Source of the DNA: Candidatus Helarchaeota archaeon
GTDB taxonomy: Archaea; Asgardarchaeota; Lokiarchaeia; Helarchaeales; RDOG01
Reading direction: 5' to 3'
Assembly: GCA_019058315.1 (NCBI GenBank)
Contig: JAHPZH010000006.1
Coordinates: forward strand, 32,001 to 96,000
DNA: 64,000 nt
The position numbers and the translations under genes were made by a program. Each line of letters opens with the position of its first letter. The first letter of the stretch is position 1. The notes under the pieces were generated by a model, which saw only the letters and a list, made by a program, of their open reading frames with translations, made no database searches and was not told the origin of the DNA. Of this stretch, positions 1 through 49,550 are shown in pieces.

Positions 1-304
1 TCTCCATTTTTAATCATTTTTTTTCTTTCAATTAAATCCTCTTCGTCGAAACGTTTCCAAAAATCATCTATATCAAAGATTCCCCAGTTTCTAAGATATT
101 CATCAAATTTCCTTCCAGAACGCCAAAAGGTGTGAATTTCTTGTTTGGTAAGCTCTTTTTTAGTTAGAATAAAAACAATCTTTGTAATTATTACGTCTAG
201 AATTTCAAAGAAATTCTTGGGAACGTGGATGAATACACTTTAGAAAAATATTTTCATAAATTTGTGCCATCCAAATCAAAAAGAAGTCCGATGTTATTTT
301 TCAT
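1..304 (-). CDS. HAD-superfamily hydrolase, intron-containing (exon1 304..262, exon2 232..<1); 3' end runs off the window
   Basis: ATG at 304 gives MKNNIGLLFDLDGT. Removing 233..261 continues IIHVPKNFFEILDV..., open to the window edge. HAD motif I DxDGT. Not in the ORF track. Confidence 0.85.
233..261 (-). other. 29-nt BHB mRNA intron in the HAD gene
   Basis: Minus strand TGGATG-GCAC-AA^A-TTTATGAAAATATTTTTCTAAA-GTGT-AT^T-CATCCA: 6-bp outer helix, 4-bp central helix, two 3-nt bulges. Contains an in-frame TGA. Confidence 0.88.
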
Positions 305-764
305 GATTTACACTTTTAGATATTTCTAATAAAATTTCAACTGCTTTTCTTACAAATTTAACACATTTTTCTTGTAAAATATTTAATTTAATAAGTTTTT
401 CTCGATCTTCTGGATCTCTTAAGTCACATTGAATTAATTCATAACACATTTCGCTTTTAAATTCGTTTTTAAATCTTTTAATGAATTCATTAGCTAAATC
501 ATATGCATATTCTTTATCTTCATTACTATTTGACCTACCATATTTTAAATTTATTGCCAAGATCGCACCATTTACGGAACCACAAACAGAACCACTTCTA
601 CCTATTCCTCCACCAAATGCCGTGGCAATTTTAGGTGTTATTGGTCCAATATTCCATGCTTCTTGCATTGTCATTAAAACGCTCTCAGCACAATTATATC
701 CTTGTGTAAAATATGCTGTTGCTTTCTTCGGAAATTCTTGATTCTTTTCTCTCATTTTTATCAC
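294..764 (-). CDS. C_GCAxxG_C_C family putative redox-active protein
   Basis: Motifs YNCAESV, FGGGIG..GSVCG and further Cys residues. Confidence 0.85.
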   Translation of the reverse strand: MIKMREKNQEFPKKATAYFTQGYNCAESVLMTMQEAWNIGPITPKIATAFGGGIGRSGSVCGSVNGAILAINLKYGRSNSNEDKEYAYDLANEFIKRFKNEFKSEMCYELIQCDLRDPEDREKLIKLNILQEKCVKFVRKAVEILLEISKSVNHEK

Positions 765-847
765 TAATTATTGAACATAAAGTAATAATACAAAAGATAT
801 TATTTCAATTAATTTCATTAGTTAATAAAAAATAAGGGCTGATTTGT

Positions 848-1627
848 ATCGAAATAATTGATACCCATATTCATTCTATATTTAGAAGTAATGACGATTT
901 TATTAATTTAGTTAAAAAAGGGGTCACAAAAGTTATTAGTGTATCCTTTTATCCAATTGTTCCTTATTATTCTAATACTTTAATTGATTTATTTAATTGG
1001 ATTATTGAAGATGAACCCCGTAGAACTGAATCTACAGGAATTACTATTCATCCTGCTATTGGTATCCATCCCCGATCGATACCTCAAGATCTAAATAAGG
1101 AAAATCTACAGAAACTTAAATTAAAAATCGAGAATGCTATTGAAAATAATAGGATTGTGGCATTAGGTGAAATAGGTTTGGAGTCTGCTACACTAATAGA
1201 AAAGGATATTTTTGAATTTCATCTTAAAATCGCAAAAGAATTCGATTTTCCTGTTATTATACATACTCCTAGAAGGAATAAAAAAGATATTACAAAAAAA
1301 TCTATAGATCTAATATTAAGAAATAAAATAGAAACGGGTGTTTTAGACCACATAGACGAACAAAATCTTTCATTAGCTAAAAATACTAGCTTAAATTTGG
1401 GTTTAACAGTTCAAATGGGAAAGTTAACTCCAGAAAATTTCTATAAAATAGTAAACGAAAATGAACATGAAAAAGATCGTTTTGTACTGAATACTGATAT
1501 TGGAAGAGACGAAGCAGATTTGTATGCGGCATATAAAGCTGTTAATATATTAAAAAATAACGGAATTAATGAACATTTAATAGATTTAATCGCATCTAAA
1601 AATGCAAAAAAGTTATTTAAATTATAG
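848..1627 (+). CDS. TatD-family metal-dependent hydrolase; start uncertain, N-terminus extends upstream of the ORF-track start at 1157
   Basis: Frame open from 836 with IIDTHIH, AIGIHP, ALGEIG, IIHTP and LNTD. No in-frame ATG/GTG/TTG before DTHIH. Confidence 0.8.
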   Translation: MEIIDTHIHSIFRSNDDFINLVKKGVTKVISVSFYPIVPYYSNTLIDLFNWIIEDEPRRTESTGITIHPAIGIHPRSIPQDLNKENLQKLKLKIENAIENNRIVALGEIGLESATLIEKDIFEFHLKIAKEFDFPVIIHTPRRNKKDITKKSIDLILRNKIETGVLDHIDEQNLSLAKNTSLNLGLTVQMGKLTPENFYKIVNENEHEKDRFVLNTDIGRDEADLYAAYKAVNILKNNGINEHLIDLIASKNAKKLFKL

Positions 1628-1665
1628 AATATAAAAAAACAACAATTCAATTATAGTGATTTTTA

Positions 1666-2433
1666 ATGGAATTAACTAAAACTGATAAGATTTTTACTAT
1701 AATTTTAATTATTTTAGGAGTCCTTTCTGTATATTTTTATTTTAATCCTCAAGCAGGTGCTTTTTTAAGTTTTTCGTCTTGGAAAATTGATAGATTTTCA
1801 TTAAATGGAACATTATTAATTGTTTTTATTGTTTGTCTAATTGGTAATCTATTACCGATTCCTACTCCCTATACTTTTATTATAATTCCTGCAGCACTTT
1901 CGTTTCCAGATTTTTTCTGGTTAATTGGATTAATGGCCTCATTTGGAGCTTTATTTGGTGAAATTGTTGGTTTTTGGGTTGGTCGAGGAACAAAAGAAGT
2001 TTTAGAACATACTGACACAGATCTTGAAAAAATTGAGAAATGGAAAAAGCTCGCAAATGAAAGACCTAAATTTGTTATGTTTTTAATTTACATTTTCGGT
2101 TTAACTCCTTTAAATGATGATAATGTTATGGTACCTTTAGGTTTAGCAGAATTTGATTTTAAAAAGACTGTTTTTTCATGCTTTCTTGGAAAACTATCAA
2201 TGATGATGTTATTTGCAGCCGGTACAGTAATTGGAATAGATTTAATTTATAGTGTAATGGGATATTCCAGATTTGAACTATTAAACTATTTACCAGGTGC
2301 TTCAGGACAAGGTAATTGGTTGGAAGGTATGATATTATTTATTATTGTTATCCTAATAGTTTGGGGAATGTTAAAAATAGATATTGGTAGATTTTTAAAA
2401 GAAAAATATGGTGTAGAACAGATAAATGAATAA
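1666..2433 (+). CDS. DedA/VTT-domain (YqaA-like) membrane protein
   Basis: Multiple TM segments; LPIPTP, GALFGE..GFWVG, LTPLNDD...PLG. Confidence 0.75.
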   Translation: MELTKTDKIFTIILIILGVLSVYFYFNPQAGAFLSFSSWKIDRFSLNGTLLIVFIVCLIGNLLPIPTPYTFIIIPAALSFPDFFWLIGLMASFGALFGEIVGFWVGRGTKEVLEHTDTDLEKIEKWKKLANERPKFVMFLIYIFGLTPLNDDNVMVPLGLAEFDFKKTVFSCFLGKLSMMMLFAAGTVIGIDLIYSVMGYSRFELLNYLPGASGQGNWLEGMILFIIVILIVWGMLKIDIGRFLKEKYGVEQINE

Positions 2434-2439
2434 ATAACG

Positions 2440-3147
2440 GTGTGTATTTTGAAAGGTTTTATAATTATAGCTCATCGAGGAGCTAGTGGATATGAATTTG
2501 AAAATTCTATTTCAGCTTTTAAAAAAGCCATCGAATTAAAAGCGGATATGATAGAAACCGATGCTCAAATTACTCAAGATGGAACAATTATTTTAAATCA
2601 CGATAATGGTATTAAAAAGACCACTAATGAAAAAGGATTCATATCGAGATTAACATTAAATGAAATTAAAAAAATTCCGTTAAAAAATGGGGAAATAATG
2701 CCTACTTATCAAGATCTTTTAGATCTTTGTAAAGGTAAAATAGAAATAAATTTAGAAATAAAAGCACGAAGAGTTGAAAAACTAGTAACAGATATTACTC
2801 TAAAGAATGATATGCTAAAAGAAGTCGTATTTTCATCTTTTTCACTGAAAACTCTTAAAAAAATTAGAGAATATAATGATGATGCCAGATTGGCATATTT
2901 AATCATTATACAAGGTTCCTTTATTGCTAGGCTTAATTATTGGATGAAAAAATTAAGTGAATTAAAAGTTGAAAGTATTAATCCCTTTCATATGTTTATA
3001 TCTTCAAAACTTGTGAAAGAAGCTCATAAAAAAGATATTTCTATATATCCTTGGACAATTAATGATTCAACTAAAATTCGAAATTTAATAGAAGAAAAAA
3101 ATATAGATGGAGTATTTACAGATTACCCTGATATATTAAATAAGTAA
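2440..3147 (+). CDS. Glycerophosphodiester phosphodiesterase
   Basis: IAHRGAS, ENS..AF, IETD, NLEIK, WTIN, FTDYP. TTG at 2449 is a possible true start. Confidence 0.92.
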   Translation: MCILKGFIIIAHRGASGYEFENSISAFKKAIELKADMIETDAQITQDGTIILNHDNGIKKTTNEKGFISRLTLNEIKKIPLKNGEIMPTYQDLLDLCKGKIEINLEIKARRVEKLVTDITLKNDMLKEVVFSSFSLKTLKKIREYNDDARLAYLIIIQGSFIARLNYWMKKLSELKVESINPFHMFISSKLVKEAHKKDISIYPWTINDSTKIRNLIEEKNIDGVFTDYPDILNK

Positions 3148-4113
3148 TTAAGCACGTTTTTTCTTTTCTATTATTAATTTTCCTATATGCAAAAATAACT
3201 CATCTATATTTTGTCCTGTTTTAGCTGATGTTTCAAAGAAAAGATAATTTAATTCTTTTGCCAATTTTTTACCTTGTTTGTTAGATACCCTTCTTTGGTT
3301 TTCTAAGTCGATTTTATTACTAACTAACACGCAAACAACATCTTCTTTAGCAAATCGTTTGATTTCACTTACCCATTCACTAACGTTCCTAAAAGACTCA
3401 GGGTTTGTAATATCATAAAGAATTAAAATTGCTTCTGCACCTGGATAATAAGTCTTTCTAAATTTTTGAAATAGTCCCTCTCCTGAAACATCCCATGCAA
3501 CCAAATCAAGTGTGTCATCTTCGACAGGATAAGAATATTTGAAAATATCTACGCCCAAAGTAGGTTTATAATCCGCGATAAATCTTTTTTTAGCAAATTG
3601 AACCAAAAGAGACGTTTTTCCAACTCCTGAATCACCTGAAACAACTATTTTATAGGTATATCTTTTTTTTGGTTGTTTGCTTATTGGAGTTTCAACAATT
3701 TTTTTTGGTTTTTGATATTCTAATGAAATATCAGTTTTCCCTTTAATTACTTTAGCTACTTTCTCCACTGCCATTTCTGCGTAAGGAATGACAGAATCAA
3801 TGCTAGAATTCTGTTTTAATATTGTAGTTAAAATTTTTTGATCCTCAACTTCTGTAAACATCAGAATTTGGGTTTTAATTTGTAAGGTAGCATTTTTGAA
3901 AAAGCCAGTATCAAAATCTTTATGAATTTTTTCACCTAATGAGTGAAGAAGCGCTGTTAAAGCTCCAATTGTAAAATCTTCCAAAGAATCACTAAAAGTA
4001 GATGCAATAATTAGTCCATCAGAGTCTACTATTGCACATCCTAAAATATCGTCCGAAATTTTTACATATTCTCCTAAAACTTTATCTAACATTTCGGTTC
4101 CTATGATTGACAC
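3148..4113 (-). CDS. Roadblock/LC7 domain fused to a Rab-like small GTPase
   Basis: N-terminal AIVDSDGLIIAS roadblock; C-terminal GDSGVGKTS, WDVSG, NKID, ETSAK. Confidence 0.88.
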   Translation of the reverse strand: MSIIGTEMLDKVLGEYVKISDDILGCAIVDSDGLIIASTFSDSLEDFTIGALTALLHSLGEKIHKDFDTGFFKNATLQIKTQILMFTEVEDQKILTTILKQNSSIDSVIPYAEMAVEKVAKVIKGKTDISLEYQKPKKIVETPISKQPKKRYTYKIVVSGDSGVGKTSLLVQFAKKRFIADYKPTLGVDIFKYSYPVEDDTLDLVAWDVSGEGLFQKFRKTYYPGAEAILILYDITNPESFRNVSEWVSEIKRFAKEDVVCVLVSNKIDLENQRRVSNKQGKKLAKELNYLFFETSAKTGQNIDELFLHIGKLIIEKKKRA

Positions 4114-4256
4114 TGTTATTATTCCTCATTTTTTGTTTTTTTCTCATTGTTTTTTTTGAAATAAAAACTCAATAACAAATAAAACTCCATTATATAAATA
4201 TTTATAATGTGAATCGAATTTATTTAAAGAAATATTATAATTTGAGATGATTTTTC

Positions 4257-5753
4257 ATGAAAAAGAATAGTTATGATGCAATAATTATTGGTTCTGGTAT
4301 TGGTGGTTCAGCTTGTGCTGCACTTCTTTCGCATGCTGGTTTCAAAACCTTAGTTTTGGAAAAAAATGAAAGAATTGGTGGTTTTACATCTTGTTATCAA
4401 AAACAAGGGTTCACTATTGATATATCTATTCACGTCTTTTCAAATGGGATAAATGGGCGTTTTGGTAAGATTTTACATAGAATTGGCCTTGCAACTAAAG
4501 AAAAGGGAAAAATTCAAAGTCAATATCTTAAATTCGTTCCAAATTTAGATAGAAGAACTGCAATTAGGATGCCTAATCAAAAAAATTATTTTTCTATGGG
4601 ATCTATGCTTACACCACAAAGTAAAATTACACCTAAACCCGATTCTGGTAATATTCAAAAAACTGTGTCTAATTTAGGAATGAATAAAGAAGATATGAAT
4701 AATTTGATGAACATTTTTATGACAATATTGGGTCTTACAAAACGAAAAATCAGAAAATTAGAAGAAAACCAATTAACTTTAAAAAATTATATTGAATCAT
4801 TTACAAAAAGTCCATTTATCCACAGTTTTCTTGCGTTTACAGTTGGAGGAATGTTTGCGATTTCTCCACGAAGAGCAAGCGCGGCAGAATTTGTTAGAGG
4901 TATTCAAGAATGGTTTGGCTCCAATGATATGTCATATCCCCTAGGAGGAAGTATCGCTGTTCCACAAGCATTCCTTGAAGGTGTTAAAAAATATGGTGGG
5001 GATATTAGGACCAAAGCACGAGTTTCAGAAATCGTTATCGAGAATAATAGAGCTAAAGGGGTAATTGTTAATGATGAATTTATAGAATCCAGTTTTATTA
5101 TTAGTAATGCCGGAATAAAAAAAACTGTTCTCTCTCTAACAGGGGAAAAATTTTATGAGAATAATTACATTAACAAAGTTAAATCGTTAGTTCCATCAAA
5201 TTCTTCAATAACTTTTAAATTTGCTTTAAATAAACAAATAATACCCAAAGAATTTGGAATGGTAAATATATTCCATAAAAATTTATTAAATCCTAGTAAA
5301 AAATCGGAAGAAGGGGACACAAGATCTACAGGTTTTATGACTATGATACCGTCAAATCTCGATCCAAATCTAGCTCCTCCAGGAAAACAATTAATAATTT
5401 TTGGAACTTTAGCTCCAACAAAAGGCGTTGAAGATTGGAAAAAGTGGACGGATATGCATTATGAAGAAATTTTACGAAATTACCCAGAAATTGAAGACCA
5501 AATTATTTTTGTGGATGTTTCGACTCCTTTAGATTTGGCTCAACTTTCAGGAAAAAAGTATGGACCAATAGAATCTACGGCCTTAATTCCTTCGCAATCA
5601 GGACCTAATAGAATATCCTCAGAATTGCCGATTGATGGTCTTTATGTCGTAGGGGATAGTGCTGGAACTAATACTCATGGTATTGGAACACAACTTGCAG
5701 CAGATAGCGCTATCAAGTGTGCCGATTTGATAATTTCGAAATATAAGCAGTAA
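4257..5753 (+). CDS. Phytoene dehydrogenase-like FAD-dependent oxidoreductase
   Basis: GSGIGG Rossmann motif, LEKNERIGG, LAPPGK, GLYVVGD. Confidence 0.85.
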   Translation: MKKNSYDAIIIGSGIGGSACAALLSHAGFKTLVLEKNERIGGFTSCYQKQGFTIDISIHVFSNGINGRFGKILHRIGLATKEKGKIQSQYLKFVPNLDRRTAIRMPNQKNYFSMGSMLTPQSKITPKPDSGNIQKTVSNLGMNKEDMNNLMNIFMTILGLTKRKIRKLEENQLTLKNYIESFTKSPFIHSFLAFTVGGMFAISPRRASAAEFVRGIQEWFGSNDMSYPLGGSIAVPQAFLEGVKKYGGDIRTKARVSEIVIENNRAKGVIVNDEFIESSFIISNAGIKKTVLSLTGEKFYENNYINKVKSLVPSNSSITFKFALNKQIIPKEFGMVNIFHKNLLNPSKKSEEGDTRSTGFMTMIPSNLDPNLAPPGKQLIIFGTLAPTKGVEDWKKWTDMHYEEILRNYPEIEDQIIFVDVSTPLDLAQLSGKKYGPIESTALIPSQSGPNRISSELPIDGLYVVGDSAGTNTHGIGTQLAADSAIKCADLIISKYKQ

Positions 5754-5862
5754 ATCTTCTTTTTTCTAAATTTCAGATCACTATTTGTGGAGTTTAAATA
5801 GGGATCTGAGAGTAAGAGTGCAATATGAAAAAAGAGTGAGAGCATTCCGAAAGTATTAGGAT

Positions 5863-6102
5863 TTGATAAAAATGATGCTACCATGTTTTAAATGTAAAAA
5901 TTGTAATACAAATTGGATTATAGATATCTATTCAGATTCTAAAGAAGGTATTATTCAAGAATTCATAAGCCAAATGTGTTGCCCAATCTGTGGGAAAAGG
6001 AATTTGAGAGTATGTTTTATTCGAAAAGTAGATGATGAAACTCCTGATATTATACAAGAGTCATTTAATAATTGTGATGAAATTACTCAATCTTTAATGT
6101 AA
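5863..6102 (+). CDS. Small zinc-ribbon protein
   Basis: CKNC...CPICG. Confidence 0.6.
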   Translation: MIKMMLPCFKCKNCNTNWIIDIYSDSKEGIIQEFISQMCCPICGKRNLRVCFIRKVDDETPDIIQESFNNCDEITQSLM

Positions 6103-6127
6103 TTTGTATTCGAAAATTCTTCTTAAA

Positions 6128-6476
6128 TTAAGTTCCTCGTCTTCTATATTTACACCCTTTTATGGGACAAAATCTATATTGAGGAGCAGAAGATCCGGCA
6201 ACTGGTCTTTTAATAATCCATCCAGAAACCCAACCATGATGTGGACAGTAATATTTTTCTCTATCTTTTAAATTTTCATCTTGTTCGTCTTGTGTAACTT
6301 TAAAATTACATACATCATGTGTTTGTTTATATTTTTCATTTACTGGACATACATTCCCTTTACGTTTAATTAAATTTACGCGGGCTATCCTCAGAATTTA
6401 TACATCCAGTACAATCTACTGGAATTTCTTTCACCTCATGTTCATATTTAATTATTGAAAGATTGTCTTTATACAT
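6128..6476 (-). CDS. Small Cys/His-rich (putative Zn-binding) protein, intron-containing (exon1 6476..6376, exon2 6359..6128; 110 aa from ATG 6476, start uncertain)
   Basis: Spliced product ...PVDCTGCINSEDSPRK-GNVCPVN...YYCPHHGW...RFCPIKGCKYRRRGT*. Exons total 333 nt. Not in the ORF track. Confidence 0.7.
6360..6375 (-). other. 16-nt BHB mRNA intron
   Basis: Minus strand CCC-GCGT-AA^A-TTTAATTAA-ACGT-AA^A-GGG; in-frame TAA; inner stem is only about 2 bp. Confidence 0.7.
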
Positions 6477-6596
6477 TATAATAAATTAGTTTAATTTTTA
6501 AAAAATAAACTTCATATAATCCTTAATAAGAAAAGAAATTTATTTTATCAACTACTACTTAAAAAGCAATTATTTAATTAGGAGGAACTACTACCT

Positions 6597-8117
6597 ATGA
6601 TAGCTGCTATTTGGAATCAACGTTTAATAACAGCAGTGGAACGTGCTAGATTAGCTCATAATGTATTTTGTGCATATAATGCTAATATCGATGCAAAAGA
6701 ATATATTAATGCTCAAAAAATTCATGTGGCATTTTTAAAAGACCCTTATCTTGTAGATAGAGTAAAAGCTGCAGTTAAAAATCCTCCCGATGAAATTCGC
6801 TCACCTGCAGATTTTTTAGCAGGTCTATATTTAGCTATGAAAGAAGGAAAATCTTTACAATGGGAAATCCGGGAAAAAAATAGAGAAATGTTAGAATGGT
6901 TTGATGAATACTTTGAAAATCCTGATGAAACTCGTATGGGTGGACAAACTGGCATTATTGCTAATTTATTGTCTATTTTAGGAGTAGAAGCTATTGTTTA
7001 CCTACCATTATTATCAAAAAAACAAGCTGAAATTTTTAGAAAAGAGCGTATATTTGTTCCTGTTAATAAAAATGATGTTGCAGAATTTCTTCCAATCCAA
7101 GAAGCTTATCGTGAAAAAGATGATACAAAAATAAATTGGGTATTTGAATTTAGAGAAGGTGGTAAGTTTCCTGTTCCTATTGAAGATAATGAAATAATTA
7201 TTGCCCCTCGTACAAATAGGTTTATTGTGGCAAGTAGACCTCCAGGTTTGATTCCTGTATGTGACTCAAAGACTGAAATAATTCTACCACAAATTGGAGA
7301 ACGTGTCGATAGAGTTATTCTTGGTGGTTATCAATACCTACGTCAAAGATATCCTGATGGTAAGACTTGTTCTGATTATTTGGATATAATTACAAAGCAT
7401 CTATTAATGTTAAAATCTAAAAACCTTTTGTTAAGGCTTCATATGGAATTTGCAGGTATTCCAAACGAACATATTAGGAAAGACATTTTGCTTAAAATCT
7501 CTCCTCAAATAAATAGCCTGGGTCTAAATGAGGTAGAAATTTTAATGGCCCTTGAGATTCTAGAATGTGAAGATGAAATTGAAATGATTAAAGCGAATGA
7601 AAATGCTTATACATTATATTTGGGTATGCTAAAAATGGCAGAATTATTAGGTTTAGAAAGAATTCATCTTCATAATCTAGGTTATCATGTTTTATACCTT
7701 AATAAATGTTATCCAACTTCTGCTTATGCTGCTAGAAATGCATTACTTTATGCTTCTAATATTGGGGCCACAAGAGCTCTAATGGGAGACTTTTACTCTC
7801 GAAGACCTGTAAGTTATGAAATTGAAATTGGAAAAACAGTGAGTATATCTTATACAGGATTAAAACAGTTAGAATTTTTTGCTGATAAAATGCTCAAAGA
7901 AGGAGTTAAATTTGATAAAGATAAATTTATGGATGAAGGAATACTAGAATTTGATAAATATTATGTCATTATTGCTCCTGCTCAAATTGCACCTTATCCT
8001 CAGAGTACCGTCGGGATTGGGGATTCTGTTAGTGCAGCTGCATTTGTTGCAGATGAGGCCAGGGATCCTCATGGTGAGAAAGAACACTGTGTAAGTCCTG
8101 AAACTGAACATATTTAA
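6597..8117 (+). CDS. pfkC: ADP-dependent phosphofructokinase/glucokinase
   Basis: AYNANIDA, RMGGQTGIIAN, SLGLNEVE, STVGIGDSVSA. Confidence 0.9.
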   Translation: MIAAIWNQRLITAVERARLAHNVFCAYNANIDAKEYINAQKIHVAFLKDPYLVDRVKAAVKNPPDEIRSPADFLAGLYLAMKEGKSLQWEIREKNREMLEWFDEYFENPDETRMGGQTGIIANLLSILGVEAIVYLPLLSKKQAEIFRKERIFVPVNKNDVAEFLPIQEAYREKDDTKINWVFEFREGGKFPVPIEDNEIIIAPRTNRFIVASRPPGLIPVCDSKTEIILPQIGERVDRVILGGYQYLRQRYPDGKTCSDYLDIITKHLLMLKSKNLLLRLHMEFAGIPNEHIRKDILLKISPQINSLGLNEVEILMALEILECEDEIEMIKANENAYTLYLGMLKMAELLGLERIHLHNLGYHVLYLNKCYPTSAYAARNALLYASNIGATRALMGDFYSRRPVSYEIEIGKTVSISYTGLKQLEFFADKMLKEGVKFDKDKFMDEGILEFDKYYVIIAPAQIAPYPQSTVGIGDSVSAAAFVADEARDPHGEKEHCVSPETEHI

Positions 8118-8143
8118 CGTTATTTCTTGTTTTTATTTTATTT

Positions 8144-9052: not shown

Positions 9053-9062
9053 CATAATAAAT

Positions 9063-31996: not shown

Positions 31997-32925
31997 ATGG
32001 AAATAATTTTTTTAGGAACATCAGGGACAGTTCCAACTGTTTCACGCAGTTTGCCTGCAATAATAATAAAAAGAGAAAATGATTTTTTGCTTTTTGATTG
32101 CGGTGAAAAAAACTAATTAATTGTAGTTTTCACTAAGGCACACAACTTCAATTTAGGAAAGCAAAAATCAGTTTTTTTAAAATTAATAAGATTTTTCTTT
32201 CACATTTACATGGCGATCATATTACTGGGTTACCTGGTCTAATTATGTCATTAGCTTTAGGTAAAAGAGAGAAAACTCTTACAATTTATGGACCTAATGG
32301 GATTAAAGGATTTATAAATAAAGTTATTGATACAATGCATTTTGATTTAACTTATCCTTTAGAAATAGTTGAAATAGCTGGAGAAGAAAATTTTGAATTT
32401 TTAAATTATAAAATTACTTGTTTTCCTTTAGAACATAGGATATTTACCTTAGGATATGTTATTGTAGAAAAACCAAAGGCAAAATTCGATGTTGAAAAGG
32501 CGAAGTCATTAAAAATTCCAAAAGGTCCTTTATGGGGAAAATTGAAATCAGGTGAAAGTATTCATTTAAATAATGGGAGAGTTATCCAACCTTCCCAAGT
32601 TTTAGGAAATATAAAACCTGGAAAAAAAATTTTATATTGCACAGATACTCGTCCTACAATTAAGACAAAAAATTTAAGCAAGAACGCAGATTTACTCATT
32701 CATGATGGTATGTTTGAAGAGAATCTAAAAGAGTTCGCTACAATTGGAGGACATTCAACAGTAGTTGAAGCCGCAGAACTGGCTAAAGATTCGAAAGTAA
32801 AAAAATTAATCTTATTCCATATAAGTTCTAGATATGAAAATAATAATTCTATTTTAGAACTTCAAGCAAAAAAAATTTTTCCTAATTCATTCATAGCTGA
32901 AGATTTTATGAGAATTTTAGTTTAA
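31997..32925 (+). CDS. rnz: Ribonuclease Z, intron-containing (exon1 31997..32107, exon2 32137..32925; 299 aa)
   Basis: [14 protein letters not shown]...LFDCGE|GTQ...SHLHGDH..G, exosite GPLWG, CTDT, HST, HIS. The ORF track finds only the C-terminal part. Confidence 0.93.
32108..32136 (+). other. 29-nt BHB mRNA intron in rnz
   Basis: TGC-GGTG-AA^A-AAAACTA-attaattg-TAGTTTT-CACT-AA^G-GCA; in-frame TAA. Confidence 0.92.
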
Positions 32926-40217: not shown

Positions 40218-40325
40218 GGGCCGGTAGATCAGCCTGGTATGATCGCCACGCTTGCAACGTGGAGATTGAATATATTACAATTTATCAACCATATGTCCCG
40301 GGATCGAAGCCCGGCCGGTCCACCA
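40218..40325 (+). tRNA. tRNA-Ala(TGC) with a 30-nt intron at 45/46 (40265..40294); CCA encoded
   Basis: GGGCCGG/CCGGTCC with G3:U70; CCACG-CT-TGC-AA-CGTGG. Splice motif GTGG-AG^A-TTGA...TCAA-CCAT-AT^G yields variable loop AGGTC. Confidence 0.93.
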
Positions 40326-40338
40326 CCAAATAAACCAT

Positions 40339-40426: not shown

Positions 40427-40532
40427 GCGGGAGTGTCCGAGTTGGTCAAAGGAGCTGGGCTTAGGACCCAGTGGCGTAGGCCTGCATGGGTTCGAATGGA
40501 TAAAAGTCCCGAAAAACCCATCTCCCGCACCA
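40427..40532 (+). tRNA. tRNA-Leu(TAG) with a 19-nt BHB intron at 59/60 (40497..40515); CCA encoded
   Basis: CTGGG-CT-TAG-GA-CCCAG; BHB GGG-TTCG-AA^T-GGA-taaaag-TCC-CGAA-AA^A-CCC. Confidence 0.95.
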
Positions 40533-40780: not shown

Positions 40781-41767
40781 TTGGATATTATTTATTGTGG
40801 TATTATGGGCAAAGATTACAAAATTTTAGTATTAGGCTCTTTAGTATTTGATAATTTAATGCATTATCCTGATTTTTTTGAAAAAAATATTGTCATTGGG
40901 GAACGAAATAATATAGATGGTTCTTTTGTTGTTGATAAATTTGAGATTTGCAGAGGTGGGACTGCAGGAAATATCTCCTATAATCTGGGAAAATTGAATA
41001 TAAAAAATATATTAATTTCAGTAGCTGGTAAAGATTTTTTAGAATATGGGAAGCTCTTAGAAAAAATGGGAACAGATTTAAGAGTAGATATTTATGAAAA
41101 AGAAAACACTGCAGCTTGTTTTATAATTTATGATAAAGATCATGATAAAATTAACATTTTTTGTGCGGGAGCACTTCAAAATGCTTATAAAATTAAAATA
41201 TCAGAAAAATTATATCCTAATGAGATTATTAAAATTGCAATAAATGCACCAAATCCTATTGATTCAATGAAAAATTTTGCTTTAGAATTAGAAAAATTAA
41301 AAATCCCAATGGTTTTTGATCCTGGACAACAAATAAATGAATTTTCAAGAGATGATTTACTAGAAATATTGAAAAAATCAGAATATCTTATATTAAATGA
41401 ATCAGAGTTAGAAATTTTAAAAAAGAAAACCAAATTAAATGAAGAACAAATCACTGAATTGGTAAATAACATTATAGTTACTTTTGGAGCTAAAGGGTCA
41501 GAAATTTATCAAATTGACGAGAAAATTACTATACCTGTGGCAAAACCTAAAAAAATAATTGATACAACTGGAGCTGGAGATGCTTATAGGGCAGGTTTAT
41601 TATGTGGCATTTTTTATAATATCAGTTTAGAAGACTCATGCAAATTGGGGTCGATAATTGGTTCTTTTGCTGTAGAATCACCAGAACCTCAAAATCAAGA
41701 TTATGATTTTAAAGATATTAAAAATAGATATGAAGAAAATTTTGGCAAGTTTCCTTTAGATTATTAA
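40781..41767 (+). CDS. PfkB-family carbohydrate/nucleoside kinase
   Basis: GGTAGN, FDPGQ, NESE, DTTGAGDAY. Confidence 0.9.
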   Translation: MDIIYCGIMGKDYKILVLGSLVFDNLMHYPDFFEKNIVIGERNNIDGSFVVDKFEICRGGTAGNISYNLGKLNIKNILISVAGKDFLEYGKLLEKMGTDLRVDIYEKENTAACFIIYDKDHDKINIFCAGALQNAYKIKISEKLYPNEIIKIAINAPNPIDSMKNFALELEKLKIPMVFDPGQQINEFSRDDLLEILKKSEYLILNESELEILKKKTKLNEEQITELVNNIIVTFGAKGSEIYQIDEKITIPVAKPKKIIDTTGAGDAYRAGLLCGIFYNISLEDSCKLGSIIGSFAVESPEPQNQDYDFKDIKNRYEENFGKFPLDY

Positions 41768-42774
41768 AAGAAAAAAGTTTTTTGTGCTTGAGAATATTTT
41801 TGGTAATTTAAAATTTGGTCATAACCTGCATGTGAAGAAAGAGGAAAAGATTTTACACCAAAATTTTGAGTTTTAGCCCAACCAGTTGCAACCATTATAG
41901 AATTTTTACTATATTTTGCCTCTAATTCTCTAATTTTTCGAATATAATAGTAAGGCAATAATATAACAGACTTGGAATTACTACTTTTATAAGTTCCATT
42001 CCCACTTTTTGAATTAAAATATGAAGTTAAATTTCTAATCTTCCTTTTATTTTCTAATGGATGGCTTTTATATTGAAATTTTCCTAAAGGTAAATAAGAA
42101 GAATGAATTTCGTTTGCTTTATAGATTGACGGATGAGTAATTAAACTGCAACTTAATGTAGAATAGTTTAAAAGTGCCGTAATTTCTTGTTGAACTCCTA
42201 ATCTCTGGGCAATGATAATTATTTCTTCATTTTCTTCTAATGTTTCCTTAAACCAGTTAAGAATTTTAGGATATAAGGTTTTTCTAGTAGGAAAAACATA
42301 TTCTTGAGAAAAGTAAGTATCATCTGTAATAAAAATCCCATTCTTACATTTTAATAATGGAGCTTTACTCATTCCAAAACGACTTTCAAGACAAAAGTCC
42401 CCAGTATATAAAATAGTTTTATTATTCAATTTAATTCTAAACTGAAAACTTCCTAAACAATGTCCTGCATGAAAGGCACTTATTTTACAACCTTGAATAT
42501 TTATTTCATCTTCAGGACAGCTATATGGTTCTATAATTTTAAAATTTGTAATTTTACAATTTTGTTTCAAATTTGATGATAATAAATCAAATGTAGGTCG
42601 GCTCATGATTTTCAGTGGATTAATTTTTTCCACATTTTTAATATGATCTACATGAGCATGACTGATAAGGATTAGATCAGCATCATTTGCTGAGGAGATT
42701 GTTGTAGGATCTATTACAATGTGAATTCTTTTTGAAATTAGATGCATGCCTCGATTTTTTATAACTTTCAACAA
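41764..42774 (-). CDS. Metallo-beta-lactamase-fold (beta-CASP-like) nuclease
   Basis: SHAHVDH, AGHCLGS, YTGDF, LSSHA. Confidence 0.85.
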   Translation of the reverse strand: MLKVIKNRGMHLISKRIHIVIDPTTISSANDADLILISHAHVDHIKNVEKINPLKIMSRPTFDLLSSNLKQNCKITNFKIIEPYSCPEDEINIQGCKISAFHAGHCLGSFQFRIKLNNKTILYTGDFCLESRFGMSKAPLLKCKNGIFITDDTYFSQEYVFPTRKTLYPKILNWFKETLEENEEIIIIAQRLGVQQEITALLNYSTLSCSLITHPSIYKANEIHSSYLPLGKFQYKSHPLENKRKIRNLTSYFNSKSGNGTYKSSNSKSVILLPYYYIRKIRELEAKYSKNSIMVATGWAKTQNFGVKSFPLSSHAGYDQILNYQKYSQAQKTFFF

Positions 42775-42847
42775 AAATCAACTACTTTTTTTATAGATAT
42801 TAATAAATTAAAAATAACGGTATTTTGTCGAAGGTGAAATTATTTAA

Positions 42848-43759
42848 ATGCTAGAATTTATTGTGAAAATAAGAGATGAAATATATAAGAAAAATAATAA
42901 GGAATTTGAATTACAAATTCAAAAATTAGTTAATAATAAAATGAAAAAATTCTATAAGTTCTATAATATTACTGAAAAAATACCAATTTTAATATATTTT
43001 CATGATTTTATCTATGAACTCTTCCCATTAGCGATGATAGAGCCCAATTTCAAAAATAATGTATTATATATTAAGAGTATCTGGTTTCAATTTTGCCCAT
43101 CAAGATGGTACTTTACAACTGATGAAATTTTATGGAATACATTATTACATGAAGGATTACATTATAAACATCAATTTAATGAAAAATTTAAACGGCTTTT
43201 TCTCGAATTTCATGGGGATTTGTTGGATGCACTATGTGATATACATTTAATTCCGTTTATAAAGGAATTAAAAATAGAAAAAAGTGAATCAGAAAGGATG
43301 TTGATTGGACGTATATTAAATTTAATGGAAAGAGAAAATCGTATTCTATTGGTAAAAAATTTCTGCGAAAATAAAAATGTTGACGATTTAATAATACATT
43401 TTCAGTTAAATAAACCTTCAATTTATCTTTTATCGGTTCTATTCTATTCGAAACGTTACATAGAATTAATTAGTAAAAAGTCTGAAATTTTTAATCTTAT
43501 ATTAGAACAAATAAAAAGGCAAGATAAAGAATTCAAAAAGAAAGAAGAAAGATTTAATTCTGTATTTGAATCAGCATTATTCCTTAAAAACGGAAAAGAA
43601 ATGGAGAGTATACTTATGAAATTAAATTCATTTAAAAATGTTCTTTTGAAAAACAATGTCAATTATAAAATAAGATTTGATTTAAACTTCAAAAAAAATT
43701 ATAGAGCCCGAAAAACTAATTCACCTAGATCAAATAATTTTAATTTTGAGTTGGTATAA
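42848..43759 (+). CDS. Hypothetical protein with an HExxH zincin-like motif
   Basis: TLLHEGLH. Confidence 0.55.
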   Translation: MLEFIVKIRDEIYKKNNKEFELQIQKLVNNKMKKFYKFYNITEKIPILIYFHDFIYELFPLAMIEPNFKNNVLYIKSIWFQFCPSRWYFTTDEILWNTLLHEGLHYKHQFNEKFKRLFLEFHGDLLDALCDIHLIPFIKELKIEKSESERMLIGRILNLMERENRILLVKNFCENKNVDDLIIHFQLNKPSIYLLSVLFYSKRYIELISKKSEIFNLILEQIKRQDKEFKKKEERFNSVFESALFLKNGKEMESILMKLNSFKNVLLKNNVNYKIRFDLNFKKNYRARKTNSPRSNNFNFELV

Positions 43760-44817
43760 CGAATTACTCGCTCAAAAGTAGATTCACAAGTTGGACACAT
43801 CGTTACCAAAGCTTCTGCACCTGTCGCTTCTGCAGCTTCTAACCGCTTTGACGCAATATCCATACTCAGATCTGCGTTAGCTGAAAGCATACCCCCTCCA
43901 GCCCCACAACAACTTGACTCATACTTATTATTTTGCATTTCAAGTAGTTGAATTCCGGGAATACTTGATAAAATAATTCTGGGGGGTTCTAGAATTCTCA
44001 TATGTCGACCTAAATCACAAGGATCATGCCAAGTAACTTTCAATTTTATTTCATTTTGAAAATTAACTTTTCTTTTTTCTAATAATTCAGCAAGAACTTC
44101 AGTGTAATGTAGAATTGTGGGATTAAAATTTGTATCTAGCTTACTATATTTATTTTTTAAAGTTTTATAACAACCAGGGCAAGGAGTAATGATTTTTTCA
44201 ATTTTATTTTCATTAAAATATTCAATATTTTTTTGCGATAATGTGTGAAACTTTTCCAAATATCCCGTTGTGGATAATAATGCTCCACAACAAACTTCAT
44301 TTTCACCAAGATAATTGAGTTTTAAACCTATTTTAATCAAGGAACTATAAATTTTTCTTAAACGATCAGGTTGTAAGTATGGATAGACACATCCAGCAAA
44401 AAATAAAGTATTTGAGGTTTTAGAAACTGGTAACCCTTCTGACCATTTTGAACGATTTTCATTAGATTCTTTAAAAGGATTGTTATATTCGATTATATTT
44501 TTAACAGTTATTCTGTGATATTTATTTTCAAAGCCCATATTTATTAAATCTGCTCTTAAAGATTCAATTAAATCGACATTATTTAAAGCACAACGATATA
44601 AACAATAACCACAAGTTGTACATAAGCTAATACATTCAATCAAATCATTATTAGGTTTTATAGATCCCTCAATTAATCCTCGGGCAATAAGCATCTTACC
44701 TCGGCAACTAAAAGCTTCATATCGAAGTTCTGAATAAACAGGACAATTTTCGCGACAAAATCCACAACGAGTTCTATTACAAGTATATATATTTTCCTTT
44801 AAATCATCTATATACAT
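43699..44817 (-). CDS. Fe-S oxidoreductase (HdrD/GlpC-like, CCG domains)
   Basis: Two ferredoxin-type Cys motifs; EVCCG, HDPCDLGR, CCGAGGG. Confidence 0.9.
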   Translation of the reverse strand: MYIDDLKENIYTCNRTRCGFCRENCPVYSELRYEAFSCRGKMLIARGLIEGSIKPNNDLIECISLCTTCGYCLYRCALNNVDLIESLRADLINMGFENKYHRITVKNIIEYNNPFKESNENRSKWSEGLPVSKTSNTLFFAGCVYPYLQPDRLRKIYSSLIKIGLKLNYLGENEVCCGALLSTTGYLEKFHTLSQKNIEYFNENKIEKIITPCPGCYKTLKNKYSKLDTNFNPTILHYTEVLAELLEKRKVNFQNEIKLKVTWHDPCDLGRHMRILEPPRIILSSIPGIQLLEMQNNKYESSCCGAGGGMLSANADLSMDIASKRLEAAEATGAEALVTMCPTCESTFERVIRYTNSKLKLFDLGELVFRAL

Positions 44818-44970
44818 TTTTAATCATTTTAATAATTAATTAATTAATTTCTTCTATTGGAAAACGATATTTTTAATATATTTTTTTTTCTAATATTCTA
44901 AAAGCAAAATTTTTTAAAATTATTGATTCTTTTTTAGTAATAACAAAAATTATTATTTATTCCTAAATGA

Positions 44971-45429
44971 ATGAGGTGTTTTGTAACGACAGGTTTAAAA
45001 TCACCAAAAGGCGAATTTGCAGGAAGATTACTTATTAGGAAGAGAAAAAAATTCCGTTGGAAAGATATTAGATATAAAAGAAGAAAATTGAAGTTGGATG
45101 TAAAATCTGATCCATTAGAAGGTGCTCCTCAAGCACGTGGTATAGTTCTAGAAAAAATTGGGATAGAAACAAAACAACCAAACTCGGGAATACGTAAGTG
45201 TGTTCGTATTCAACTTATTAAAAATGGTAAACAAATAACTGCATTTCTCCCTGGTGATGGAGCATTAAATTTTATAGACGAACATGATGAGGTTTTAGTT
45301 GAAGGTATCGGAGGAGCGAAAGGGCGGGCTGTAGGAGATTTACCTGGTGTAAGATGGAAAGTTATTAAGGTAAATAATGTCGGGCTCGAATCGCTTTTAA
45401 CAGGTAAGAAAGAGAAACCAATCAGATAA
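44971..45429 (+). CDS. rps12: 30S ribosomal protein S12 (uS12)
   Basis: [30 protein letters not shown]. Confidence 0.97.
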
Positions 45430-45475
45430 ATTATTTGGAATTATTATTTCAAATATTATAAACTATTTAGCATTT

Positions 45476-46531
45476 TTAAATAGGTTTTCCTGGAAAAATA
45501 TTATTTAATTTGATATTTGATAGTTTAATTATAGTAGGGGCAACATCAAGAGTTGAATAAATTCGGGAAGAATTATATTTATATTTAAGTTCATAATTTT
45601 TACTCATAATAATAAGAGGAACGTACAATTCTTCTTTTAGATATCCCCCATGACTTCCGTTTAAATTTTCCTTTTCAAATTCAATTCCTGTATTTGCAGA
45701 TATCACGATATCTCCAGTCCTTTTATGATATAATTTAATATCTTTTGTTTGAGATTTAAGAAAAATTTTGTCAATTTCTTTTATATGGTTGAGTTCTTCC
45801 ATTATTTCTTTATGATCTTTATTTAAATAAATATGACATGCACGATGGGATTCTAAAAATTGGCCTGATATTCCTACATTTTGAAAATAACGTTTTAAAT
45901 TAAATCTTTTTGATACTTTGGTCATACCATGGTCTGCAGTGATTATCATTATTAATTTATCTTCAACAATTTCATAAATTTGTGATAAAAATTGATCACA
46001 TTTAGATATTTCATTTAGATATTTTTTATTATCTGGACCAAATGTTTCACCATACCCATCAACTCCTGCAAAATTAATTACCCCAAATTTGATATTATAG
46101 TTCTTCAAAAATTTCATAGTTTTATCAAAAATTAATTCATCTCTTTTTTCTAACGATATTTCATTTAGCTCTTGCATAGGCATTATATAATCCGCTCCTT
46201 TTGTTATAGGTTCTGCCACAGCCATGGTTTTTGGTGAATTAAGCATTTCAAATAGAGTATGAGATTGAATATATTCAGAAGGGTTATAATAGTCAAAATG
46301 TTTTACTTTTTTATCATTTTTATCAAAGAATTGATTTCCAATCATTCCATGTTGTTCGGGAAAAGTGCCAGTTACAATTGACGAGTGTCCAGTATAAGTT
46401 GCTGTTGGAAATACTGTCTTACAATTAAAAGTTATAAATCCTTTTTCACTTAAAGAATCAATAAAAGGAGTATGAGCTTTTATATATGAATTTATTGCAC
46501 ATCCGTCCAAAATAAAAAGAAGAATAATCAA
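45476..46531 (-). CDS. Alkaline phosphatase superfamily protein (nucleotide pyrophosphatase-like)
   Basis: ILDG, FPTAT..GHSSIVTG, TADHG, GSHG, DVAPT. Confidence 0.88.
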   Translation of the reverse strand: MIILLFILDGCAINSYIKAHTPFIDSLSEKGFITFNCKTVFPTATYTGHSSIVTGTFPEQHGMIGNQFFDKNDKKVKHFDYYNPSEYIQSHTLFEMLNSPKTMAVAEPITKGADYIMPMQELNEISLEKRDELIFDKTMKFLKNYNIKFGVINFAGVDGYGETFGPDNKKYLNEISKCDQFLSQIYEIVEDKLIMIITADHGMTKVSKRFNLKRYFQNVGISGQFLESHRACHIYLNKDHKEIMEELNHIKEIDKIFLKSQTKDIKLYHKRTGDIVISANTGIEFEKENLNGSHGGYLKEELYVPLIIMSKNYELKYKYNSSRIYSTLDVAPTIIKLSNIKLNNIFPGKPI

Positions 46532-46838
46532 GAAAATCCCATTTTAATAAAATATTCAATTTTTAATTTTCAAATTTTAGATAGAATTCTAGATTTTTAA
46601 ATCAACTTTTAAATAGAATTATATTTTTTTAAGGAAAAAAAGGTAAATAGATGAAAAAATTCAAAGTTTTTGAATAATTCATTGAATTAAAGAAAATAAT
46701 ATGAATGAAAATAATGCTAAATTAGAAGATTTTAAAATAAATTCAATCTCAACGTTATATTTTCAAAATTTGTGGGTATTAAATATTAAAAATTCTAATC
46801 ATTAATAAAATAAAATTAAGTCAATAAGTGGAGTTTCG

Positions 46839-47216
46839 ATGTCAGTTTTATTAAAAACTTATAAAATTGATAAATTAAAAGAATATTTAGAGGATTTAAA
46901 TACGAAAAACGGAAATAAAGGATGTATCTTATGCTCAGAAGAAGGATTAGTAGTCATATCAACAAAGAATGGAAATAATGAATTAGATTTTGACTCATTA
47001 GCAGCTATGGGAGCAACATTATTAAGTATTATGAATGATCAAATTTTTTTAGATGTCATAATATCATATGAAAATAAGAAAGTCTTTATCCGCAAAATCG
47101 ATGGCGAAATATGTAATTTTATATTCATTAATATATTTGAGACTAATAAAAGATATTTTAGGCGAGATGTAAATAAAACAATTAAAAAAATTAGCAAACT
47201 TTTAACATTATCCTAA
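46839..47216 (+). CDS. Roadblock/LC7-like protein
   Basis: CILCSEEGLVVIS...LAAMGATL. Confidence 0.7.
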   Translation: MSVLLKTYKIDKLKEYLEDLNTKNGNKGCILCSEEGLVVISTKNGNNELDFDSLAAMGATLLSIMNDQIFLDVIISYENKKVFIRKIDGEICNFIFINIFETNKRYFRRDVNKTIKKISKLLTLS

Positions 47217-47225
47217 AAATATATT

Positions 47226-47363
47226 TGGTGCAGCTGCCGAGATTTTCGGAATAAATTTAAAATAATCTATTCTTTCGAACCCGGGTCAGAGGCTTGGGAG
47301 GCTTCCGTAAATTGACCGATAATGGTCAATTTGCCCCGTCCTAACCAACTAGACTACAGCTGC
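47226..47363 (-). tRNA. tRNA-Gly(CCC) with two 31-nt introns: 29/30 (47303..47333) and 59/60 (47243..47273); CCA encoded
   Basis: GCAGCTG/CAGCTGC acceptor stem. After splicing: GGGGC-CT-CCC-AA-GCCTC and CCGGG-TTCGAAT-CTCGG. Confidence 0.9.
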
Positions 47364-47398
47364 ATTATTCTCATTATTAGATAAAGATAAATTATTAT

Positions 47399-49550
47399 TT
47401 AAAAAAAATCGGCTTTTGGTATTTCAGCTTTTCTACCTTTTTTTATACGAATGTCTGAAATTATTTTTTGAGCGCTATCATAGGAAATAAATTCCCAATG
47501 AGAAAAAACTGTTTGCCAGAATGCTTGTCCTGCAGTTTTTGAACGAATATCAGTAGATAGATTAAATGATTCTTTAACTGGAATTAGACCAGTAATGTAT
47601 GAATAAGAATCTTTTTGTTCAATATTTAGAATTTTGCTTTTCCTTTGTAATAATAAAGCTGTAATAACTCCTATTAGATTTGTAGGAACTTGGATTTGAA
47701 TCTTATAAATTGGCTCAAAAATAGTAGGTTCTGATTTTAAAAAAGCGCTGTAAACCGCTCTTTTACCCATTAACATAATTTGAAGCGGATCGACTTCTAA
47801 AGTATTTTTATCAATTTTTAATAAATGGATATTTATTTGCAATCCTTTTATTGGTTCTTCGCATAAAGGTCCTGCATTTAGAGCCATTTTAATACCCTTT
47901 ATAATAATTTCTTTGATTTTATCATCAATTTCTTGGCTTAAATCATTAATAATTAGATTATTATTGTAATCTATTGCTAGAATCTTCTTATGTTTTAAAA
48001 TTTCTTTAATTCTTTCTTCGTTTATTGGTTCTACTGAAAGTTTGATTTGATTCAAATTATTTTGACTTAAAGTTGAAATTATTGGGCTCTTTATTTTAAT
48101 TCCTTCTCTGTAGACTACAATTGGATCGGACATTAATATGTCAATCCCAAAATCTTTTATTTCATTAGCAATGATTTCTAGATGTAATTGTCCGATTCCA
48201 GAAATCAAATATTCCCCTGTATCTTCATTAATATCGATTTTTATATCGGGATCGTTTATTTTTATTTTATTTAAAATATCTAGCATTTTAGGTAATTCCT
48301 TTGGATGTTTGGGTTCAATAGAAACTGTTATAACAGGATCTGATACATATTTGATATTTTCAAATGGGTCAATTATTTCTTTAAACTCACTATTAGTTAA
48401 TGTTTCTCCAACTATTGCCTCTGAGAGGCCTATAAAAGCTCCAATATTACCTGCTGTAAGAGAATTAACAATTTCTCTTTTATGTCCCATTGAAATGAAA
48501 ATTTTTAAAACTCGATTAATGTCTTTCGCAGTTAATAAATAGACTTCATCACCTGAATTAATGGTTCCAGAAAATATACGTCCTATTGATATTTTTCCTA
48601 CATGTTTGTCAAATAATATCTTATGAATACAAATAATTAATGGTCCATTTTCATTACATTTTTGCATATTTTGTGCTAAAGCTGAATTTAAATCGCCTTT
48701 CCAAATTTTTTTAATTCTATAAGTTTGTGCAATTTTAGGACTTGGCAAATGATTAATTATCATATTTAATATACATTTATCTAAAGGTAGAATTTCACTT
48801 AATATCTCAATTTTGTTTATTCCATTTTTATAATAATTAAAAATATTATCAAACTTTAGTTTCTTATTTTTCATGATATTTAATGTAAAACCCCAACTAG
48901 GATATAAAGCGCATCCAAATCCTACATTATTCATTTCTGGAATTATTTTCCATTTATCTTTAAATTCATTTTCAGCATAAAGTTCAATATAATCGTTAAA
49001 TTTATCTATAATATTTTGAAAATAATTTTGAATTTCATTAGAGTTTAATTTTAATTCTTTTATTAAACGATCAACTTTATTTATATACAGAATTGGTTTT
49101 ATACGTTCTTGCAAAGCTTGTTTTGTTACAATTTCTGTCTGAATTTGGCATCCTTCAACTGCATCTACAACTACAATGGCACCATCAATTGCTCTTAACG
49201 CTCTAGATACTCTGGCAGTTAAATCCACTTAGTCTATAAAAATAATTTTATTTTTATATATGACCTGGAGTATCTATCAGATTAATAATGAATCTCTCAT
49301 TAGCTATTTGATACAATAATGAAATATTTGCAGTCTTAACTGTAATTCCTCTTTTTTGTTCAATATCTAAATAATCCAGAGCCCGAAGAGAACCTGCTAA
49401 ATTTGAAGATATTACTTTCCCTAATGCTAAAAGGCTATCAGTTAAAGTAGTCTTTCCATGGTCTATATGCGCTATTATACCAATATTGCGTATGTTGTCC
49501 TTTTGTTTCATTGTTTCTAAAATTTCATTAATTTTTTTTGATTTTACCAT
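47399..49550 (-). CDS. fusA: Elongation factor 2 homolog, intron-containing (exon1 49550..49260, exon2 49228..47399; 706 aa)
   Basis: AHIDHGKTT, RGIT, spliced DTPGH|VD, NKVD, GQLHLE, EPIY; diphthamide HRG motif absent. Confidence 0.92.
49229..49259 (-). other. 31-nt BHB mRNA intron in EF-2
   Basis: Minus strand CCA-GGTC-AT^A-TATAAAAATA-aaat-TATTTTTATA-GACT-AA^G-TGG; in-frame TAA. Confidence 0.93.

Follow-up and report, generated by a model that had tools for sequence, protein, structure and literature searches.

Predicted bulge-helix-bulge introns in protein-coding genes of a Helarchaeota-like Asgard archaeon

Four interrupted genes and their predicted introns

The DNA analysed here (the window) is a stretch of 64,000 nucleotides (nt) from Candidatus Helarchaeota archaeon, positions 32001-96000 of contig JAHPZH010000006.1 (G000:C6:32001-96000; GC content 26.7%) of the assembly GCA_019058315.1 (G000), a metagenome-assembled genome of 5.8 Mb in 12 contigs that is 94% complete with 6.6% contamination. 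Four genes in the window, encoding a HAD-family hydrolase, a small Cys/His-rich protein, RNase Z (rnz) and elongation factor EF-2, are each interrupted by a short insert which is predicted to be a bulge-helix-bulge (BHB) intron of the kind otherwise removed from archaeal tRNAs. The features are as follows (H1 and H2, helices; amino acids, aa; base pairs, bp).

262 to 304, minus strand: exon 1 of the HAD-family hydrolase gene, ATG at 304-302, translated as MKNNIGLLFDLDGT plus 1 nt
233 to 261, minus strand: candidate HAD intron, 29 nt; H1 GGATG/CATCC, H2 GCAC/GTGT, bulges AAA and ATT
1 to 232, minus strand, continuing past the window start to G000:C6:31589: HAD exon 2, a 214-codon open frame; positions 46-177 of the Pfam HAD_2 profile
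6376 to 6476, minus strand: exon 1 of the Cys/His-rich protein gene, 33 codons plus 2 nt; PVDCTGC...SPR as in proteins P0241-P0246
6360 to 6375, minus strand: candidate Cys/His intron, 16 nt; H1 CCC/GGG, H2 GCGT/ACGT, bulges AAA and AAA, inner helix of 2 bp
6128 to 6359, minus strand: Cys/His exon 2, stop included; 76-89% identity to the contiguous 96-aa proteins P0241-P0244
31997 to 32107, plus strand: rnz exon 1, 37 codons to FDCGE; ratio of nonsynonymous to synonymous substitution rates (dN/dS) of 0.12-0.24 against intron-bearing relatives
32108 to 32136, plus strand: candidate rnz intron, 29 nt; H1 TGC/GCA, H2 GGTG/CACT, bulges AAA and AAG, inner stem AAAACTA/TAGTTTT
32137 to 32925, plus strand: rnz exon 2, stop included; positions 26-130 of the Pfam Lactamase_B_2 profile
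49260 to 49550, minus strand: EF-2 exon 1, 97 codons to DTPGH; positions 2-79 of the Pfam GTP_EFTU profile
49229 to 49259, minus strand: candidate EF-2 intron, 31 nt; H1 TCCA/TGGA, H2 GGTC/GACT, bulges ATA and AAG, inner stem of 10 bp
47399 to 49228, minus strand: EF-2 exon 2, 609 codons plus stop; positions 82-151 of the Pfam GTP_EFTU profile, then EF-G domains II-V

None of the four insert lengths is a multiple of three, so that each insert shifts the frame, and each brings an in-frame stop one to three codons past the 5´ junction (TGA in the HAD gene, TAA in the Cys/His, rnz and EF-2 genes). Deletion of the insert yields a continuous open reading frame (ORF) in all four genes. With a caret marking the junction, the spliced HAD protein would start MKNNIGLLFDLDGT^IIHVPK (DLDGT^IIH), the spliced Cys/His protein would read ...CTGCINSEDSPRK^GNVCPVNEKY... 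(SPRK^GNVCPVNEKY), the spliced rnz product ...LLFDCGE^GTQLQF... (FDCGE^GTQ) and spliced EF-2 ...LIDTPGH^VDLTARV... (DTPGH^VDL). Intronless orthologues align exactly through each of the four junctions. The coordinates, lengths, frame shifts and stops given in an earlier note made from the sequence of this stretch were all confirmed, and removal of the inserts produces the nucleotide junctions it had predicted (GGCACAA^TCATC, CGTAA^AGGG, GGTGAA^GGCACA and GGTCAT^GTGGAT).

Folding was examined by hand and with RNAfold. Both gave the same architecture for all four inserts, hBHBh', with an outer helix of 3-6 bp, a central helix of 4 bp, two 3-nt bulges on opposite strands and an inner hairpin. On the 5´ strand the outer helix is followed by the 4-nt strand of the central helix, the 3-nt bulge and the inner hairpin; on the 3´ strand, the 4 nt pairing with the exon come first, then the second 3-nt bulge and the outer helix. 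The inner helix measures 4-10 bp in HAD, rnz and EF-2. The cuts that restore the frame lie after base 2 of each bulge in all four inserts, the very rule that the earlier note had proposed. Energy z-scores against shuffles were -2.9 (HAD), -0.5 (Cys/His), -2.2 (rnz) and -3.0 (EF-2); since these values are modest and prove nothing alone, folding energy was not relied on for the verdict. It is the comparative evidence, that is, the orthologue alignments across the junctions, the covariation in EF-2 and rnz and the genome-wide frame control described below, that identifies the sites as predicted BHB motifs beyond chance.

The window also holds a tRNA gene with an intron of this type.

40218 to 40322, plus strand: tRNA-Ala(UGC); BHB intron of 30 nt at position 45/46 (40265-40294); Rfam tRNA match of 45 bits, in which the variable region has an insertion of 31 nt

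Its central helix is GTGG/CCAT (determined by hand) and it follows the same cutting rule as the mRNA inserts, in line with the earlier claim that the tRNA introns of the window obey it. This tRNA would be a substrate within the window for the enzymes that process the mRNA inserts. A further tRNA-like sequence was noted just after tRNA-His, at 40434-40485 on the plus strand. It matches the tRNA model below threshold at 21.5 bits (model positions 8-63), resembles a type II tRNA (GCGGGAGTGTCCGAGTTGGTCAAAGG...) and is perhaps split by more introns.

Conservation of the EF-2 and rnz inserts and the splicing machinery

For EF-2, 30 species-representative relatives and eight contigs of truncated homologues were compared with the window. 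The EF-2 frame is uninterrupted in 29 of the 30 relatives (694-742 aa), and the remaining genome (G001), the sole member of the same family among them, carries a 33-nt insert at the same codon. The closest EF-2 homologues in a large protein collection, named Candidatus Helarchaeota archaeon and at most 86% identical, all end short at the insert site, with 613-642 instead of about 733 aa. All eight contigs encoding short homologues, which come from metagenome-assembled genomes labelled Helarchaeota and Jordarchaeaceae and from JGI, ENA and Logan contigs, contain a 28-33-nt insert at DTPGH^VD. Thus, 10 independent assemblies (the window and nine others; NCBI, JGI, ENA and Logan) share the insert at one and the same site. 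Its length varies between 28 and 33 nt and the sequences differ, with inner stems that are AT-rich, of the GAATTC type or GGGAC/GTCCC. A search of genome contigs for relatives with EF-2 exon 2 found none.

When the EF-2 inserts were aligned and folded with RNAalifold without guidance, the canonical hBHBh' consensus was obtained, and seven of its 15 pairs show double compensatory changes. One central-helix pair is U-A in seven sequences and C-G in three, a change linked to a synonymous GGT-to-GGC exchange in the Gly codon of the exon. In the specified structure 99% of the cells are paired, compared with 88% in column shuffles (none of 500 as high), and slid registers reach 11-46%. The EF-2 insert has been held at one codon across lineages that differ in more than half of the protein sequence.

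For rnz, three relatives (G001, G005 and G006) read through the corresponding motif FDAGEGTQ uninterrupted. In the three closest metagenomic homologues (L097-L099; 70-81% identity), an insert of 29-30 nt occupies the site seen in the window. In one of these (L099) a compensatory GGCG/CGCC replaces GGTG/CACT. Only one rnz was found in the genome of the window, and the other EF-2-like gene in this genome is a paralogue of 40% identity. Taken together, the EF-2 and rnz inserts are kept across lineages of 46-86% protein identity with both exons open.

Computed between intron-bearing orthologues and for each exon separately, dN/dS amounts to 0.07 and 0.17 in EF-2 and lies within 0.11-0.24 in rnz. 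Both exons of either gene are under purifying selection, and EF-2 and rnz have therefore been functional while carrying the insert. Since dN/dS is low between insert-bearing lineages, decay and assembly artefact are excluded for these two genes.

The enzymes that would be required are encoded in the genome. Two genes with EndA domains (PF01974/PF02778) were found, at G000:C12:5149-5700 and G000:C1:331414-332016, encoding proteins of 184 and 201 aa, and one gene for RtcB (PF01139). The 184-aa protein contains a catalytic-type GPGIDHAPF...RKK region, and the 201-aa protein is without that His. An (alpha-beta)2 EndA has been described in Asgard archaea and linked to a relaxed or broad substrate range (PMC5829648); judged by its domains, the EndA pair found here matches this architecture.

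Two observations on annotation and one on a further intron concern these genes. The earlier note had expected that standard pipelines miscall genes of this kind, and the public EF-2 entries of four relatives (L089-L092) are indeed split into 98 aa plus 613-636 aa. At NCBI the pieces are named 'elongation factor EF-2' or 'GTP-binding protein', and the rnz of relatives is called as 226 aa from an internal ATG. In two Helarchaeota genomes (L090:1033-1072, GCA_054383535.1; L091:1032-1072, GCA_054384095.1) a second candidate BHB intron of 40-41 nt lies in EF-2 exon 1 at DIEQ^KRGIT, with the central helix GAAC/GTTC and both bulges AAA. It is absent from the EF-2 gene of the window, and EF-2 is annotated as pieces of 70-72 aa, 30 aa and 613-615 aa in these two genomes.

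Interpretation and competing explanations

We consider it very probable that the four inserts are BHB introns in pre-mRNAs, cleaved by EndA and ligated by RtcB. This reading of the earlier note is supported because the motif geometry, the restoration of frame and motif, the intronless orthologues, the conservation of the EF-2 and rnz inserts with compensation, the selection acting on the exons and a genome that encodes EndA alpha and beta as well as RtcB all point to it. The four mRNAs almost certainly have to be spliced; cleavage and ligation themselves we infer from sequence, and a search for sequencing runs listed none of RNA that covers the locus. In the pre-mRNA the exon bases just 5´ of the insert would pair with its final bases, giving the 4-bp helix between the two 3-nt bulges. 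A heterotetrameric (alpha-beta)2 EndA would then make one cut per bulge and RtcB would join the exons, and the full protein would be encoded by the spliced mRNA only.

The introns have the look of neutral passengers, persisting where GC-rich codons (Gly, Pro, Asp, His) of conserved motifs form the exon half-motif. In a genome of 27-30% GC, GGN, CCN, GAY and CAY codons may be among the few places able to do so. Gain and loss would take place on short time scales, with an old intron in EF-2, one at genus level in rnz and those of the HAD and Cys/His genes specific to this genome.

HAD orthologues in three relatives (G001, G002 and G004) are contiguous without an insert (FDMDGTIF, FDLDGTLI), and the N-terminus of the spliced HAD protein agrees with contiguous orthologues, e.g. 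MSTQTFGLLFDMDGTIF in G001. Contiguous 96-aa relatives of the Cys/His protein (76-89% identity) read ...SPRKGNECPVNEKY..., and comparison with the DNA of a close relative (L100) reveals a clean filled and empty site of 16 nt. Because the relatives are contiguous and the gap in the Cys/His gene is a clean 16 nt, both introns look like recent gains. Metagenome contigs yielded no relatives in searches with exon 2 of the HAD gene or of the Cys/His gene.

Several findings weigh against the intron reading or its reach. The HAD and Cys/His inserts occur only in this genome among the relatives examined, so conservation cannot vouch for either. The inner helix of the Cys/His motif has only 2 bp (a relaxed motif), and its fold is no better than that of shuffles (z -0.5). 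Furthermore, the Cys/His insert (6354-6381, minus strand) can also be read as CGTAAA-TTTAATTAAA-CGTAAA, a 10-nt palindrome between 6-nt direct repeats, so that a recent disabling insertion is possible. Finally, we scanned the genome for BHB motifs on both strands with an ORF-joining test, taking wrong-frame joins as the internal null. With loose motifs (185,645 hits, several filters) correct-frame joins were not above wrong-frame joins, and the phenomenon is therefore less widespread than four per 60 genes implies. The apparent excess seen once a codon-usage filter was added came from the weakest, longest motifs (60-70 nt) and is probably spurious.

The repeat arrangement at the Cys/His insert resembles a target-site duplication or a slippage product. 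Terminal direct repeats of this kind were absent at all other introns checked (HAD, rnz, EF-2 and the leuC-like gene described below).

The alternative that survives best is a mixed case, in which EF-2 and rnz are spliced while the 16 nt of Cys/His, the 29 nt of HAD or both are recent gene-inactivating insertions with a fortuitous BHB-like fold. The restriction of both inserts to this genome speaks for it, as do the poor fold of the Cys/His insert and its palindrome with the CGTAAA repeat, which might be a duplication or a footprint. However, both inserts follow the cutting rule exactly, neither exon of either gene carries further lesions, and the HAD motif ranks with the strongest (outer helix of 6 bp, z -2.9). 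The HAD insert is less likely than that of Cys/His to be a fresh disabling insertion. A random insert would meet all outer, central and inner pairings in well below 1 in 1000 cases (about 0.4 per pair and at least nine pairs, from base composition). Taking these points together we regard the mixed case as unlikely. Owing to the palindrome and repeats and the 2-bp inner helix, the Cys/His insert is the weakest of the four cases, and we hold it as a probable, not a secure, intron.

It might also be possible that all four genes are pseudogenes created by hairpin insertions, from which nothing is removed. Each insert does shift the frame and introduce a stop, and pipelines call fragments; against this stand the EF-2 and rnz inserts, kept across divergent lineages with open exons and dN/dS of 0.07-0.24, in a genome with a single rnz and only a distant EF-2 paralogue, which makes general decay highly improbable. 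The same low probability applies to ribosomal bypassing of the type known from phage T4 gene 60 or yeast mitochondrial byps. The genes bear a superficial likeness to gene 60, having a stop directly behind the take-off point and a hairpin within the gap, yet matching take-off and landing codons were not found, and the HAD and Cys/His junctions lie within codons (phases 1 and 2) and cannot be joined by hopping. In addition, the covariation preserves a 4-bp helix and 3-nt bulges formed with exon bases, a requirement of EndA and not of bypassing.

An assembly or sequencing artefact, which nothing suggests beyond the metagenomic origin of the genome, is the least credible of these explanations, as the EF-2 insert recurs in 10 data sets, assembled separately and drawn from four archives, and the rnz insert in four data sets. 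Group I and group II introns were rejected: the inserts measure 16-31 nt, compared with the hundreds of nucleotides that a catalytic RNA core takes up, and the only Rfam matches in the window are tRNAs.

Extent in the genome and relation to known systems

Restricting the genome scan to strong motifs gave 7-10 correct-frame ORF joins, with 0-3 expected from wrong-frame joins; this is a range and not a count, because the scan overlooks offset inner helices (as in leuC) and very short exons (as in HAD). Five further genes split by candidate BHB introns were identified (coordinates in G000), and in four of the five both halves match adjoining positions of one Pfam profile.

C6:232831-232857, plus strand: 27-nt intron in a leuC-like gene of the aconitase family; Pfam positions 20-129 and 130-305 on the two sides
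C1:81769-81794, plus strand: 26-nt intron in a PAC2 gene; exon 2 from Pfam position 14, 34-aa exon 1 without a Pfam match of its own
C5:499169-499201, plus strand: 33-nt intron in an HTH_3-CBS regulator gene; HTH_3 domain interrupted at position 28, with CBS domains after it
C10:146806-146837, plus strand: 32-nt intron in an HDAC-family deacetylase gene; Pfam positions 1-151 and 154-295 on the two sides
C10:138945-138976, minus strand: 32-nt intron in rrp41; Pfam positions 1-59 and 64-129 on the two sides

Other candidates, among them C1:253032, C2:312117 and C10:79193, proved to be false, representing adjacent genes or ordinary gene starts.

Nine split genes were verified in 5.8 Mb, and the wrong-frame null caps the total at roughly 10-50, or 0.2-1% of the genes, that is, tens and not hundreds. 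The earlier expectation of a phenomenon widespread in the genome thus stands insofar as at least nine genes are split; the extrapolation from four in 60 genes was too high, as window and contig are unusually rich. Contig C6 (313,714 bp), which makes up 5% of the assembly and has its lowest GC content (28.8%), carries five of the nine verified mRNA introns, and a rough binomial estimate places this far from chance. No duplicate rnz or EF-2 that would point to a mixed bin was found elsewhere in the assembly.

Whether these introns reflect a standing system of protein-only mRNA splicing in Helarchaeota-like and Jordarchaeia-like Asgard archaea, with EndA/RtcB micro-introns in tens of genes per genome, including an old intron in the G3 motif of EF-2, and with insertion still ongoing (as the 16-nt filled and empty site would indicate), is in our view an evenly balanced question. 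If so, the closest relatives of eukaryotes would include a prokaryotic model for the gain of introns by coding genes, and the synthesis of EF-2, RNase Z and the exosome subunit Rrp41 would depend on tRNA-splicing capacity. In any case, one Asgard genome appears to have at least nine unrelated genes that need splicing, these three included, which makes a concrete and testable case of non-spliceosomal mRNA splicing in the closest archaeal relatives of eukaryotes. Genes of this kind are now filed as fragments or pseudogenes, and the filled and empty site offers a way to study the arrival of a BHB intron in coding DNA.

In the searchable literature, archaeal splicing of coding sequence by tRNA-splicing enzymes is documented only for crenarchaeal cbf5, whose pre-mRNA contains a BHB intron (Watanabe 2002; Yoshinari 2006; Yokobori 2009, PMC2738675) and for which splicing was established by RT-PCR (reverse transcription PCR) and in vitro cleavage. 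The genes described here are similar in having a short frame-breaking BHB intron in the coding sequence, a host with hetero-oligomeric EndA and a patchy pattern of gain and loss among relatives. However, other genes are affected, the host is a Helarchaeota-like Asgard archaeon, at least nine genes of one genome are concerned instead of one, and splicing is a prediction. The cbf5 gene (TruB_N) of this genome is a contiguous, uninterrupted frame of 364 aa. A literature search that took in the Atabeyarchaeia/Freyarchaeia genomes of 2024 and a preprint of 2026 on tRNA introns in Asgard archaea turned up no account of mRNA introns in this group; the search was incomplete, so that a report elsewhere is possible.

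The introns of archaeal tRNAs and rRNAs, for which EndA makes the cuts and RtcB joins the exons and circularises the introns, have the identical motif and cutting rule; here, the host RNA would be an mRNA and the exon half-motif is made of codons. EndA substrates other than tRNA and rRNA are reported from Haloferax volcanii, where EndA is reportedly active on an mRNA at a site in the 5´ untranslated region, thus outside the coding sequence, whereas in the genes reported here the reading frame depends on removal. The splicing of HAC1/XBP1 by Ire1 is likewise a non-spliceosomal, protein-only cutting and ligation of an mRNA that alters the frame, and RtcB is the metazoan ligase. It differs in the nuclease (Ire1), in the twin 7-nt loops, compared with the 3-nt bulges of one composite helix here, and in being a stress-regulated switch. 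Nothing in the analysis points to regulation or to an Ire1 homologue, for which no search was made, and the bearing on HAC1/XBP1 and on intron origins that the earlier note had seen is no more than an analogy.

Two features of the splice sites were also observed. Conserved codons that are Gly-rich or otherwise rich in GC tend to precede the 5´ sites (CCA GGT CAT^, GGT GAA^, GGC GGC GAC^ and GAT GGC ACA A^). In five of the nine introns G.U forms the outermost central-helix pair, and at this position three of the 10 EF-2 orthologues have G-C instead.

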